From Candidatus Coprosoma sp. (GTDB lineage Bacteria; Bacillota_I; Bacilli_A; RF39; UBA660): a DNA stretch of 55,277 bases. Under the pieces are notes generated by a model that did no database searches, was not told the origin of the DNA, and saw only the letters and a list, made by a program, of their open reading frames with translations. The stretch lies in contig CAWVFK010000014.1 of NCBI GenBank assembly GCA_963928595.1, positions 1 through 55,277 on the forward strand, in the 5' to 3' direction. The position numbers and the translations under genes are program-made. Below, piece after piece: positions 637 to 3,871 of the stretch (position 1 is the first letter of the stretch; each line of letters starts with the position of its first letter).

Positions 637-840
637 TTAATATCCGCGATTTTCACGGCGGTTACGACGACGAGTGTTTTTAATGCCTTCTTTTTTAGCG
701 TTTCTTCTTCTAACTCCTGGTTTTAAGTAACCGTCTTGTTTTTCTCTTAATTGTGCTAGGGAGCCATCTTTACTATTGGCAGCTTTTAGGTTTCTTAATG
801 CACCATCAACATTGCCATTTCTAACTACTACTTTTGTCAT
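637..840 (-). CDS. rpsU: 30S ribosomal protein S21
   Basis: MTKVVVRNGNVDGALRNLK...YLKPGVRRR fits the S21 pattern; start moved to the ATG at 840 behind the GGGAGGG RBS; adjacent to yqeY. Confidence 0.85.
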   Translation of the reverse strand: MTKVVVRNGNVDGALRNLKAANSKDGSLAQLREKQDGYLKPGVRRRNAKKEGIKNTRRRNRRENRGY

Positions 841-920: not shown

Positions 921-942
921 AAAAAGTAAGCTTTCGCTTACT
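921..942 (-). terminator. Intrinsic terminator after the double-glycine peptide genes
   Basis: AGTAAGC-gaaa-GCTTACT hairpin followed by a T run on the minus strand, overlapping the stop codon at 938. Confidence 0.7.
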
Positions 943-1102
943 CTAGACTGCAAGTGGCACCGGATGTTATCCTTCTAAATGATGATCCAAGGCTTTTTCC
1001 AAGTTCGATTATAAGACTTAAACCTTTGACTATTGCATTGATGAAAGTAGCCGTAATTGAACCTCCATTAATCATTTTTAAATCTTGATCTTTAATAATC
1101 AT
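938..1102 (-). CDS. Double-glycine leader peptide precursor 2 (54 aa, not in the ORF track)
   Basis: Manual translation MIIKDQDLKMINGG-SITATFINAIVKGLSLIIELGKSLGSSFRRITSGATCSLE; GG-type leader; ATGA overlap with the upstream peptide; downstream of a C39 exporter. Confidence 0.8.
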   Translation of the reverse strand: MIIKDQDLKMINGGSITATFINAIVKGLSLIIELGKSLGSSFRRITSGATCSLE

Positions 1103-1233
1103 TTACCACACTCTATTGGATTTAAAAATCCTTCTATAGCACTTATGATAAAGGTTATTACACCACCTAAGGCAGCCCAAAGGCCATAACCTCCGCCACT
1201 CACTTGCATTAGTTCCCTATTACTTAAATTCAT
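1099..1233 (-). CDS. Double-glycine leader peptide precursor 1 (44 aa, class II bacteriocin/pheromone-like, not in the ORF track)
   Basis: Manual translation MNLSNRELMQVSGG-GYGLWAALGGVITFIISAIEGFLNPIECGK; RBS AAAGGGG; LSxxELxxVxGG leader consensus. Confidence 0.85.
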   Translation of the reverse strand: MNLSNRELMQVSGGGYGLWAALGGVITFIISAIEGFLNPIECGK

Positions 1234-1244
1234 AAATCCCCTTT

Positions 1245-3251
1245 CTAGTTATTACGCGTAGTATCAACAACCACTTTTCCTTTTTGTAATTTGATATACT
1301 TGTCAAATAAATCCAAATTATCTAATCTATGTGAAATGTAAATTATAGTTTTATATTTGTAAGTTTTCATCAGTTTTTTTAAAATCCTCCTTTCCATATC
1401 TACACTTACTTGATTTAATCCTTCATCAATAATGATAATGTCAAAATTATTTAAAGCGCGAGCTAAGACAATACGCTGTTTTTGACCACCAGATAAATTA
1501 AATCCATCTTCTTCAATTATCTGATAATAATTTCCTTTTACAAATTTATCTATTTCACATATTTTAGTGTTTTTAGGATTTTTCTTTTTTAAGTTTAAAT
1601 TATCTTCTAAGGTTCCCGTAAATAGTATTTCTTTTTGAGAAACATATAAAATATTATTAAAATTATATTTTTTTATTTCTTTCTCTCCTATTTTCACACT
1701 ACCTTGATAATCTTGATAGTAACCTTTGATAATTTTAAATAATGTGGATTTACCACTACCACTATCACCTGTTACCATAACTTTACTTGATTTAGATATT
1801 TTTAAATTAAGTTTTTTTAAAACATGATTATCTTGGTTAAATATATAATTTAAGTTAGTAATAACAATATCACCATTTGCTTTAATAGGTTTTATGTTTT
1901 CTGATTTTTTGGTAGTTAATTCGGTTATATTGCTTAAAGCTGTTTTAACCTCATTTATTTGATAGCTAAAGTTAAAAAGATTTTTAAATGAAGATATAAG
2001 TAATGAAGATAAAATAAACAAAGTGACAAAAAGCGTTATATCACTATTACTTTTTTTTATGATAAATATGACAATTAGAAATGTACTTAAAGTTTCTAAC
2101 ATGTTCTTTAATAAATTATGATTTCCCTCATTTGTAGATAATTTCTTTTGACTGTTTATAAAATTTTGATATTTGTGATTAAATGTATTATATATTTTAG
2201 GAGTAATATTTAAATTTTTAATAGTTTCAAAGCCCACGATACTTTCTACAATGTATGAACTATTTAAAGCTTTTGTTCTAATCATTTCTGAGATCCATAC
2301 TTTTTGTTTTTTTTGGTAAATCGAAGTAATTAGTGAGAAAAGTAAAACACTGATAAAAGATATTATTAAGACAGAAGGATCAATACAAAAAATGATTATA
2401 CTTATAATTAAAATTAATGGGATTTCGAGAAAAACTATTTGAATAAACTCATTTATAGCATTTCTAATTATCGAAAGATCATTAAAGTAACTTGTGATTT
2501 CTCCAGTGGTTTTACGGCGGTAATAACGATAAGGAAGGTTTAAAATATTTTTAAAAATATCCATGGATAATTCTTGATCGAGCTTTATATTAAAATTTAA
2601 AAGCAACTTGTCTTTAAAGAAAGATAAAAGGTTTTTGGTAACAAAAATTAAAGAAAAAATTAGAAGCAGGTTTGTGACATTTTTTTTACTATTAATAATA
2701 GCTGGTATAAAAAGTGAAGTTAAAAGTGAAAAGATACTAACGATTATAGAAAAGACATAGATAATAATTACTAATTTTGAATGTTTTTTTATATAACGAA
2801 ACAGAAATTTTATAACTTGAGGCTCTGGTTCAGACACAATTTTGGAAATTGGCCTCATTTGAATAGTAACTCCACTCCATATTTGATAAAAATCTTTAAA
2901 GGACATTGTTTTTAAGTTTGTAGCAGGATCGGCAATGAATAAAGTTTTTCGTTTTGGATTTACCTTATAGATGACAATGTAATGTTTGTAGGAGCCATTA
3001 ACAGTTACATGTGCGATACAAGGTAATTTGAGATTCAAAACATCTTGTGATTTTATTCCGACACTTTTAAAACCTAAAGAATTCAATGTTTCTTTGATAT
3101 TATAAGCGGTTGTACCATTTTTATTGGTATTCATCATCTCACTTAGCTTGTCCATATTTACATACCCGTGATAGGACTTTAATATCATCTGCACACAGGC
3201 TGGACCACAATCTTTAATTCCACATTGCTTGACAAAAGGATATTTTCTAAT
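1245..3251 (-). CDS. Peptidase C39-containing ABC transporter (PCAT, ComA/SunT-like)
   Basis: The C39 motif VKQCGIKDCGPAC lies upstream of the GTG called by the ORF track; His in HYIVIY; TM domain; Walker A GDSGSGKST, LSGGQ, ISHRL. Start inferred at ATT 3251 (or ATA 3254) behind AGGGAGGTG. Confidence 0.9.
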   Translation of the reverse strand: MRKYPFVKQCGIKDCGPACVQMILKSYHGYVNMDKLSEMMNTNKNGTTAYNIKETLNSLGFKSVGIKSQDVLNLKLPCIAHVTVNGSYKHYIVIYKVNPKRKTLFIADPATNLKTMSFKDFYQIWSGVTIQMRPISKIVSEPEPQVIKFLFRYIKKHSKLVIIIYVFSIIVSIFSLLTSLFIPAIINSKKNVTNLLLIFSLIFVTKNLLSFFKDKLLLNFNIKLDQELSMDIFKNILNLPYRYYRRKTTGEITSYFNDLSIIRNAINEFIQIVFLEIPLILIISIIIFCIDPSVLIISFISVLLFSLITSIYQKKQKVWISEMIRTKALNSSYIVESIVGFETIKNLNITPKIYNTFNHKYQNFINSQKKLSTNEGNHNLLKNMLETLSTFLIVIFIIKKSNSDITLFVTLFILSSLLISSFKNLFNFSYQINEVKTALSNITELTTKKSENIKPIKANGDIVITNLNYIFNQDNHVLKKLNLKISKSSKVMVTGDSGSGKSTLFKIIKGYYQDYQGSVKIGEKEIKKYNFNNILYVSQKEILFTGTLEDNLNLKKKNPKNTKICEIDKFVKGNYYQIIEEDGFNLSGGQKQRIVLARALNNFDIIIIDEGLNQVSVDMERRILKKLMKTYKYKTIIYISHRLDNLDLFDKYIKLQKGKVVVDTTRNN

Positions 3252-3343
3252 TATTTCACCTCCCTTATATTTTATATACGACGTTTTGAAGGTGAAATCC
3301 TTTAAAAAAATAAAATTTATTAAAAAAATGGTATTTTTACCAT

Positions 3344-3871
3344 TTATAAATTGTTTTTATATATTTTAATTTTTTTAGGGCCATAACTTTTTTCTTTGAT
3401 TAATTCGAGGTTGGTGTGAGGCTCACCTATCTCATATTCACAGATGACAATTCCATTTTCATTTAATAGGTCTCTTTCTTCAATTATGCGCAAGGACTTG
3501 TCTAATTGGTTTTCTTTATAAGGGGGGTCTAAAAAAATAATATCAAATTTTTTATCAGTTGTTTTTAAGAATTTTTTATAATCAATATGAATGATATTTA
3601 AAGTTTCTTCAAAATTTTGGCTATTTTCTTTAATGGTTTTAATAGCTTCTATATTATTATCAATTAAATAACACTCTTTAGCTCCATTACTTACGGCTTC
3701 TAAACCTAAGGCTCCACTACCGGCAAATAAATCCAAAACTATACTACCATGAATATAAATTTGAATCATACCAAATAATGATTCTTTAACTCTATCCATA
3801 GTAGGTCTCGTACCTTCAATATTAAATCCATTTAATTTTTTTCCTTTATATTTTCCACTTATAATGCGCAT
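3344..3871 (-). CDS. rsmD: 16S rRNA (guanine966-N2) methyltransferase
   Basis: MRIISGKYKG, TRPTMDRVKESLF, LDLFAGSGALG and DIIFLDPPY motifs. Confidence 0.95.
   Translation of the reverse strand: MRIISGKYKGKKLNGFNIEGTRPTMDRVKESLFGMIQIYIHGSIVLDLFAGSGALGLEAVSNGAKECYLIDNNIEAIKTIKENSQNFEETLNIIHIDYKKFLKTTDKKFDIIFLDPPYKENQLDKSLRIIEERDLLNENGIVICEYEIGEPHTNLELIKEKSYGPKKIKIYKNNL

Follow-up and report, generated by a model that had tools for sequence, protein, structure and literature searches.

We describe here a three-gene cassette in a 55,277-nucleotide stretch of DNA from Candidatus Coprosoma sp. (GenBank assembly GCA_963928595.1, contig CAWVFK010000014.1; hereafter, the window), which encodes a peptidase-bearing transporter of the ATP-binding cassette (ABC) type (PCAT) followed by two small double-glycine peptides that we named pepA and pepB. 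Comparison with related loci showed an intact exporter with two co-inherited, translationally coupled predicted substrates, and the distribution of the cassette indicates that a large family of uncultured gut Bacilli inherits it vertically as part of its core genome. Its design is that of a class IIb two-peptide bacteriocin, whereas its genetics are not: the locus is core, single-copy and family-wide, and no immunity gene accompanies it in the genus of the window. The original prediction, made from the window alone, had proposed either a class IIb bacteriocin, which might be a disulfide-linked heterodimer, or a ComAB/CSP-like pheromone system. As far as function can be read from sequence, we rate at about even chances that the two peptides form a membrane-permeabilising pair aimed at other cells in the manner of class IIb bacteriocins. 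The features of the window to which we refer are:

1245..3251 (or 3254), minus strand: PCAT exporter, with a C39 peptidase, a six-transmembrane ABC domain and an ATPase
1099..1233, minus strand: pepA, 44 aa, leader at 1192-1233 (14 aa) plus a 30-aa mature peptide
938..1102, minus strand: pepB, 54 aa, leader at 1061-1102 (14 aa) plus a 40-aa mature peptide
923..944, minus strand: intrinsic terminator hairpin from a terminator scan, GTAAGC-GAAA-GCTTAC and then a T run
3275..3303, minus strand: sigma-H-like promoter, -35 AAAGGATTT (3303-3295), 14-nt spacer, -10 CGTATA (3280-3275)
3257..3265, minus strand: ribosome-binding site of the exporter, AGGGAGGTG, conserved, by direct reading of the sequence
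3344-3871, minus strand: rsmD, upstream flank, Pfam-confirmed
637-840, minus strand: rpsU, downstream flank, Pfam-confirmed
897-869, minus strand: strong rpsU promoter, TTGAAA-17-TATAAT with TG

The three genes formed a compact minus-strand operon, PCAT-pepA-pepB, located between rsmD and rpsU. The exporter stop and the pepA start were separated by 11 nt, and pepA had its own ribosome-binding site (AAAGGGGA). The pepB start overlapped the end of pepA in an ATGA, an arrangement of translational coupling, and the terminator hairpin (944-923) overlapped the pepB stop codon. This layout agreed with the original prediction, which had placed two coupled small open reading frames (ORFs) behind a C39 exporter at these positions, with mature peptides of 30 and 40 aa and with the core genes rsmD and rpsU as flanks. 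Its statement that no immunity, HlyD-like or modification gene adjoined the cassette held for the window and for the loci of the genus. Close homologues of the small ORFs were already called as genes in public assemblies and had never been named.

The exporter (668/669 aa) contained the domains Peptidase_C39 (PF03412, E 7.9e-32), ABC_membrane (PF00664, 7.5e-24) and ABC_tran (PF00005, 2.9e-21), and aligned over its full length to PCAT1 (4RY2, E 1.6e-73) and ComA (8HF4, E 5e-69). The catalytic positions of the peptidase (Gln, Cys, His and Asp) were kept, since VKQ...DCGPAC, KHYIVIY and IADP aligned with the catalytic residues of PCAT1, and the ATPase motifs GDSGSGKST (Walker A), LSGGQ (signature) and IIIIDE (Walker B) were all present. 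No second C39 domain was encoded in the host genome. On its TIGR01193 (bacteriocin_ABC) score of 319 bits, below that model's cut-off, we classify the protein as a divergent member of the PCAT superfamily that lies outside the curated subfamily. It also scored 222.9 bits on NF045998 (the Mbov_0121-family peptidase ABC transporter), again below the curated cut-off. There was no ATG, GTG or TTG 5' of the codon for the catalytic Cys. An ATT, ATA or ATC was found 5 nt past GGAGGTG in the window and its close relatives, and distant relatives carried ATG at exactly that position; in all relatives the start codon followed the ribosome-binding site by 5 nt and the N-terminal residues were conserved. 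Because the non-AUG codon aligned with the ATG of the relatives and the N-terminus was conserved, we assign the start to ATT 3251 or ATA 3254 by alignment. Starts of the ATT/ATA type usually result in low translation. They recurred in this group, as the whole clade used ATT, ATA or ATC for the exporter (window 3249-3254, minus strand), and YhcG paralogues (C10:~23970 and C46:~5880) showed ATG, TTG or ATT at one aligned position behind GAGGTG.

The pepA precursor was composed of the leader MNLSNRELMQVSGG and the mature part GYGLWAALGGVITFIISAIEGFLNPIECGK, which ends in NPIECGK, and that of pepB of the leader MIIKDQDLKMINGG and a mature part, SITATF...TCSLE, that contains ELGKSLGSSFRR and Cys51. 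Both leaders, encoded beside the PCAT gene, fitted the pattern L-x-x-x-E-L-x-x-(I/V)-x-G-G; the columns L8 and G14 were invariant in both peptide alignments, and G13 was invariant in pepA and present in at least 90% of the pepB sequences. Both precursors are predicted to be cut after Gly-Gly during export. A search of the host genome for other double-glycine peptides found none that was convincing, leaving pepA and pepB as the sole ones. The claim that both mature peptides are amphipathic was right for pepB (hydrophobic moment, muH, of 0.4-0.6; net charge +2) and wrong for pepA, a hydrophobic, transmembrane-like helix (mean hydrophobicity, H, of 0.73; net charge -1) with the length of a membrane span. 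The GxxxG-like motifs also claimed were found as small-xxx-small motifs in both peptides, namely GLWAA, AALGG and SAIEG in pepA and AIVKG and GKSLG in pepB. AlphaFold2 (AF2) models built from family alignments gave each precursor a short leader helix, one long helix (residues 16-37 in pepA and 18-47 in pepB) and a flexible tail carrying the Cys, with mean pLDDT values of 76 and 80, respectively. Coupled double-glycine peptides with small-xxx-small motifs, each predicted to form a single helix, and a peptidase-ABC exporter dedicated to them together reproduced the class IIb-type two-peptide architecture that had been proposed. Pfam gave no name to either peptide and NCBIfam only a marginal one to pepA, which reached 21.7 bits on TIGR03949 (lactobin A/cerein 7B; cut-off 21.5) through residues 2-31, that is, the leader and the Gly-rich start; pepB scored 13.9 bits on the same model, below the cut-off.

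Twelve syntenic loci from the genus, and 38 loci obtained from a scan of 185,579 species' genomes, all had both ORFs intact and adjacent. When compared to six relatives of equal length, the mature parts showed dN/dS ratios of 0.155 (pepA) and 0.10 (pepB), with proportions of synonymous (pS) and non-synonymous (pN) differences of 0.49-0.58 and 0.10-0.11, while the leaders were slightly freer (dN/dS 0.18-0.24). Over all peptide parts, dN/dS ranged from 0.10 to 0.24 and pS from 0.34 to 0.78. Throughout the genus the mature peptides were about 60-98% identical and the exporter 53-92%, the peptides being the better conserved. The conservation across relatives on which the original prediction depended was thus present: all related loci that were examined retained the small ORFs, in which synonymous changes were numerous and non-synonymous ones rare, and the ORFs and both Cys residues were conserved in the homologues. 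These substitution patterns indicate that pepA and pepB are real genes under purifying selection. Short, AT-rich and nameless in every source, the small ORFs could be taken for chance frames or decayed remnants. That reading has practically no probability left and is ruled out by the conservation data, as the frames are intact across hundreds of genomes at the dN/dS and pS values given above, and leaders, ribosome-binding sites and coupling are all conserved.

A pepB profile search of 1.84 billion proteins returned 445 clusters at 50% identity, 158 of them at E <= 1e-10, and the best 150 matches were almost all full-length (50-57 aa). None of the best 120 of 244 homologues (E <= 0.001) bore a name or a Pfam domain, all being unnamed or 'hypothetical'. 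In a sample of the class (399 genomes), full-length pepB matches were confined to 50 genomes of the host's own family in the Genome Taxonomy Database (GTDB) and a single genome from another family. Within the family, pepB was present in 286 of 301 genomes, in 220 of the 226 of high quality and in 208 of 214 genera, while 146 of 151 genomes had pepA, which without exception lay directly upstream of pepB and was single-copy in nearly all of them. Among the 15 genomes with no pepB match, four had a contig break inside the exporter gene, one retained the exporter and pepA, seven had no C39 domain at all, one (G499) showed only weak likeness to C39, in an unrelated frame of 1073 aa, and two gave very weak C39 matches (E about 2-4e-4). 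This breakdown indicates that peptides and pump are present or absent together. The cassette very often lay just upstream of rpsU-yqeY, distant genera included, and its upstream neighbour varied. The nearest named record was 'Firmicutes bacterium CAG:822' (order RF39), whose exporter and mature pepB were 92% and 98% identical to those of the window, respectively. The GTDB genus CAG-822 (Candidatus Coprosoma) has been placed in the order RF39, family CAG-822 (PMC8035907). Genome sizes in this family were 0.5-1.7 Mb. Since its presence is near-universal and single-copy through the whole family, the cassette is not an accessory island, and we regard it, on this distribution, as a core and vertically inherited gene set.

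Some loci departed from the common arrangement. In one lineage a gene of the 2',5'-RNA-ligase family was inserted between pepA and pepB (L058:5363-5944), and in another locus (L064) the two genes were about 0.7 kb apart, so that adjacency is the rule and not absolute. One protein of 101 aa (P0041) appeared as a pepA-pepB fusion with the junction ...CTSKKWSIM..., which probably reflects two genes merged by a gene caller that read the TGA stop as Trp. In a Mycoplasma-like family (f12; e.g., G035:C1:578344-578427), where TGA is read inside genes, ORFs of 139 aa matched the pepB profile over its double-glycine leader only and may encode cargo of Mbov_0121-type exporters.

The single Cys noted near the C-terminus of each peptide proved to be invariant. 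In 112 diverse pepB sequences it was present in all 112, G39 and C51 being the only invariant columns, and the C-terminal Cys of pepA was present in 38 of 38 loci that had been chosen without reference to it. Some pepA sets, including one of 69 peptides, were picked by a pattern that requires P-x-x-C and therefore cannot prove invariance; the non-circular basis is formed by the 38 loci and the family profile matches. Exactly one Cys was found in 97 of 112 pepB and 64 of 69 pepA mature peptides, and pepA kept the motif G-(F/Y)-x-(N/R)-P-x-x-C. The number of residues after the Cys varied from 0 to 7 in the pepA and pepB sets, and a thiolactone or CaaX-type role of the Cys was rejected for this reason. 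A ring of fixed size is likewise disfavoured. In the AF2 models the Cys sat 4-5 residues beyond the helix end in each peptide, so that the two thiols would come close to each other if the helices paired in parallel. Two parallel helices that are joined, or aligned, at their C-termini would fit this pattern, and a disulfide-linked pepA-pepB heterodimer is a plausible hypothesis. To our knowledge, no two-peptide bacteriocin is a disulfide-linked heterodimer, and a literature search also found none.

Upstream of the exporter, the succession of AAAGGAWWW, 12-14 nt, CGTATR, TTAATATAT and GAGGGAGGTG was conserved at the nucleotide level throughout the genus, while its surroundings were not. The strict motif A[AG]AGGAWWW-N10-14-YGTATR occurred 21 times in the host genome versus 1-5 times in shuffled sequences, which preserve base composition only and not dinucleotides; a looser pattern was not enriched (57 matches versus 33-54 in shuffles). 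At least 10 of the 21 copies lay 20-35 nt before a start codon, and the genes bearing the motif included comEA (SLBB plus HHH_3), dnaG (which precedes sigA), one gene for a UvrD-type helicase, and several YhcG, PDDEXK_2 and ORF6N genes. The -35 element of the window fitted the Bacillus sigma-H sequence RNAGGAWWW perfectly. Its -10 element, CGTATA, was one base off the consensus (GTAT for GAAT) and its 14-nt spacer compared with 11-12 nt in the RNAGGAWWW-RNNGAAT form; in two distant relatives the canonical sigma-H form, AGGAAAT...GAAT, was found upstream of the exporter. A gene for a SigH-like factor was found in the genome next to one resembling yacO, and sporulation sigma factors of F-, E-, G- and K-like type were also encoded. 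From these features we infer a sigma-H-type, transition-state promoter. The same stereotyped promoter and leader (RAAGGAAWT, N12-14, CGTATR, TTAWATATAGAGGTG, start codon) was seen in the window at 3275-3303 (minus strand) and at about 20 more sites (C3:3986, C4:13450, C22:4802, C33:2423 and C37:2387, among others). As a set, the motif-bearing genes resembled a sigma-H-type regulon made up mostly of DNA-handling and nuclease genes, PDDEXK_2 being Rpn-like.

In about half of the other genera examined, the operon contained two more genes, an accessory gene and a third small gene that we call pepC. The accessory gene, between the exporter and pepA, encodes a protein of 137-166 aa (typically about 150) with one N-terminal transmembrane helix (e.g., L056:5409-5855, L042:3457-3870 and L067:1036-1494). 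It had no Pfam match and a weak full-length match, below the curated cut-off, to the Mycoplasma MAG1140 family (NF045999, E 0.0011), an accession that neighbours NF045998, the Mbov_0121-type exporter that the window exporter also resembles; the protein may be a minimal export accessory. A conserved WNCxxxxC motif was observed in the versions from L042, L043 and L045. pepC encodes 48-61 aa and overlaps the pepB stop by about 12 nt (e.g., L056:6153-6323 and L060:6153-6323, and also L067, L069, L078 and L083). Its product has a Lys-rich N-terminus and one transmembrane helix, lacks a double-glycine leader and has a C-terminal stretch, (L/Y)G(R/K)xxG(S/T)xxR...C, that copies the C-terminal half of pepB and in which the Cys is often kept. 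pepC lies at the place of the immunity gene in two-peptide loci and could encode a candidate immunity protein, acting as a membrane-anchored decoy. The genus of the window had neither gene at the locus. Because relatives carry the two further genes, the lack of an immunity gene is a derived state of this genus; on this comparison, the five-gene form is ancestral, the accessory gene and pepC having been lost.

If the pair is indeed aimed at other cells, the C39 domain would cut the precursors after Gly-Gly and the ABC part would export them, with no accessory needed, as in PCAT1. Once exported, the hydrophobic helix of pepA (30 aa) and the amphipathic, cationic one of pepB (40 aa) would pack in parallel through their small-xxx-small faces, and the paired helices would insert into a membrane and make it leaky, like class IIb two-peptide bacteriocins, while the two Cys thiols may lock the pair as a disulfide-linked heterodimer. 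A sigma-H-type promoter common to comEA and dnaG suggests that the operon would be switched on at the transition to stationary phase. For a single-copy core set in genomes of 0.5-1.7 Mb, the most likely use would be a standing, starvation-timed weapon or lytic factor and not a strain-specific one. A more complete version is, in our view, rather doubtful: a lineage-defining 'starvation weapon' of the CAG-822 family, Cys-linked as a heterodimer and secreted under sigma-H control when nutrients begin to run short, would lyse neighbours for nutrients and DNA that these auxotrophs cannot make, with protection by a pepC decoy as the ancestral state; the genus of the window, having lost pepC and the accessory gene, would protect itself otherwise, for example by having no receptor. 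If that were true, the covalent heterodimer would be a chain design so far not known among bacteriocins.

Several observations weigh against a toxin aimed at other cells or against parts of its proposed mechanism. Near-universal, single-copy vertical inheritance under strong purifying selection is unlike the strain-variable loci of class II bacteriocins; pepA is not cationic; and the exporter scored 319 bits on TIGR01193, below the curated cut-off of 523.85. Searches of the host genome by tblastn and hidden Markov models (HMMs) found no relocated accessory or pepC gene, and keeping a self-toxic pair without protection would be odd. The host genome (1.13 Mb) is 89% complete, a caveat that applies to the absences of pepC, DsbB and DprA. 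Neither DsbB nor VKOR was found in the genus (DsbA-like proteins were not searched), so that, in an anoxic gut habitat, any disulfide would form without a dedicated oxidase. Finally, the sigma factor was assigned by likeness of motif alone, none of the three T2SSE genes (type II secretion ATPase family) had the motif, and a search for DprA in the genome gave nothing. These last two results make a link to competence weak, and membership of a competence regulon is not claimed despite the motif at comEA.

Much of the same evidence would suit a pair that acts for the producer itself, staying in or on its own envelope with a housekeeping or developmental job, as a PSM-like surfactant or spreading factor, in envelope remodelling (stationary phase or sporulation) or as a holin-like release factor; where pepC exists, it would anchor the pair. 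We consider this unlikely. The cassette is core, single-copy and vertical in 95-97% of genomes and in more than 200 genera, both peptides are under purifying selection, and the immunity gene is absent from the genus of the window, with none elsewhere in the genome. Moreover, pepA resembles a plain transmembrane helix; pepC, as a membrane-anchored copy of the C-terminal half of pepB that often has the Cys, fits a surface complex; and a sigma-H-like promoter is combined with sporulation sigma factors in the genome. Staphylococcal phenol-soluble modulins (PSMs) provide a precedent, since these amphipathic peptides belong to the core genome, leave the cell through an ABC exporter of their own and have no immunity gene. 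What speaks against a pair acting for the producer is that a double-glycine leader with a PCAT means released peptides, either bacteriocins or pheromones, in all studied Gram-positive cases, that the two-helix small-xxx-small design is the one of pore-forming pairs and that no partner gene suggestive of envelope or sporulation functions travels with the cassette.

A ComAB/CSP-like pheromone system, in which a membrane kinase would sense one mature peptide or both as quorum signals, drew on the double-glycine leaders, the ComA-like exporter and the cassette without an immunity gene. The receptor search recommended with the original prediction did reveal one LytTR/HPK10 pair in the host genome, a regulator with REC and LytTR domains and an HPK10-type GHKL kinase on contig C4. 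This pair was found at a contig end (C4:18910-21211) beside an AgrD-like ORF, and in a complete genome of the genus (L092:1183-3991) it adjoined AgrB (PF04647, E 7e-31) and a 39-aa AgrD-like peptide (MSFIASLLSSLGGMFANASSSACLGWWIDEPECPKTLIK), indicating by its agrB-agrD-agrC-agrA-type neighbours that the sole receptor pair has a peptide of its own. A LytTR domain was present in 16 of 19 sampled genomes of the genus. No kinase or regulator lay beside the cassette in about 70 loci, and the mature parts, of 30 and 40 aa and with one of them transmembrane-like, were under purifying and not diversifying selection, with no pherotype-like diversification; moreover, obligatorily paired peptides are not a known pheromone design. 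The region upstream of the operon had no LytTR-type direct repeats and no motif in common with the agrB upstream region, and control of the operon by agr was rejected on these grounds. We therefore disfavour the pheromone alternative and judge it improbable. Very improbable, in our estimation, is that the Cys marks a ribosomally synthesised and post-translationally modified peptide (RiPP), modified by a thioether, S-glycosylation or a lipid through an enzyme encoded elsewhere. The invariance of the Cys, its place in a fixed P-x-x-C motif in pepA and the lack of DsbB and VKOR in the genus would agree with such a modification, but in about 70 loci no modifying enzyme accompanies the cassette, between 0 and 7 residues follow the Cys, and a single Cys per chain leaves no partner for an intramolecular ring. 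A radical-SAM-type gene (CNMRCKYC, 369 aa) was seen once (L017:4784-5893), 0.8 kb downstream of pepB at the expected place of rpsU, and no other locus seen had such a neighbour.

Few uncultured bacteria in the guts of humans and animals are as widespread as RF39-type Bacilli, whose genomes are very small. Since so streamlined a lineage keeps the cassette in about 95% of genomes and in more than 200 genera, the cassette must be important to the way these bacteria live. If the pair is a toxin, it would represent a rare core, vertically inherited weapon of bacteriocin type, possibly the first two-peptide bacteriocin held by a disulfide, and would be relevant to nutrient acquisition by these auxotrophs; otherwise, the double-glycine/PCAT export route would have a new physiological use. 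In either case pepA, pepB, pepC and the accessory protein constitute four unnamed protein families. With mature peptides of just 30 and 40 residues, direct testing with synthetic peptides is feasible even though the host is uncultured.

Among known systems, class IIb bacteriocins (lactococcin G, plantaricin EF/JK; TIGR03949) share with the cassette adjacent double-glycine genes and a C39-ABC exporter in one operon, and helical mature peptides of 30-40 aa with GxxxG-like motifs, one partner being amphipathic and cationic. In contrast to them, the mature parts of pepA and pepB are unrelated to any named member and pepB has no family match; the window lacks an immunity gene, pepA is not cationic, each chain has an invariant C-terminal Cys and the locus is core to a whole family. 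CibAB, a two-peptide bacteriocin induced by competence and used in fratricide by Streptococcus pneumoniae, and Sdp/Skf, used in cannibalism by Bacillus subtilis, are chromosomal killing factors timed by ComX (of the sigma-H family) or Spo0A and used on neighbours at a change of state. The cassette has a sigma-H-like promoter common to comEA, the sigma factor being inferred. CibAB has the immunity gene cibC adjacent, and there is no sequence relation to either system; as DprA was not found here, competence as such is doubtful. The PSMs of Staphylococcus and their Pmt exporter resemble it as core helical membrane-active peptides with a dedicated ABC exporter, no immunity gene and agr in the genome, and differ in having neither leader nor peptidase, in not being obligate pairs and in being directly controlled by AgrA, for which no site of AgrA type was found here. 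The Mycoplasma Mbov_0121/MAG1140 cassette (NF045998 plus NF045999) gave matches below cut-off and both lineages are reduced-genome Bacilli; its putative substrates, proteins of about 139 aa, have only the leader in common with pepB. The closest solved relatives of the exporter are PCAT1/CtA of Clostridium thermocellum (4RY2, 6V9Z) and ComA (8HF4), which align over the full length with the catalytic Cys, His and Asp kept; PCAT1 likewise works without an accessory protein, and the cargoes are unrelated to pepA and pepB. Literature searches on disulfide-linked two-peptide bacteriocins, bacteriocins of RFN20/RF39, core-genome PCATs and Mbov_0121/MAG1140 retrieved nothing on this system. Altogether, a double-glycine pair with a PCAT is in itself of a known kind, and what is new with respect to the literature is the family-wide core genetics, the invariant Cys pair and the two unnamed partner families.

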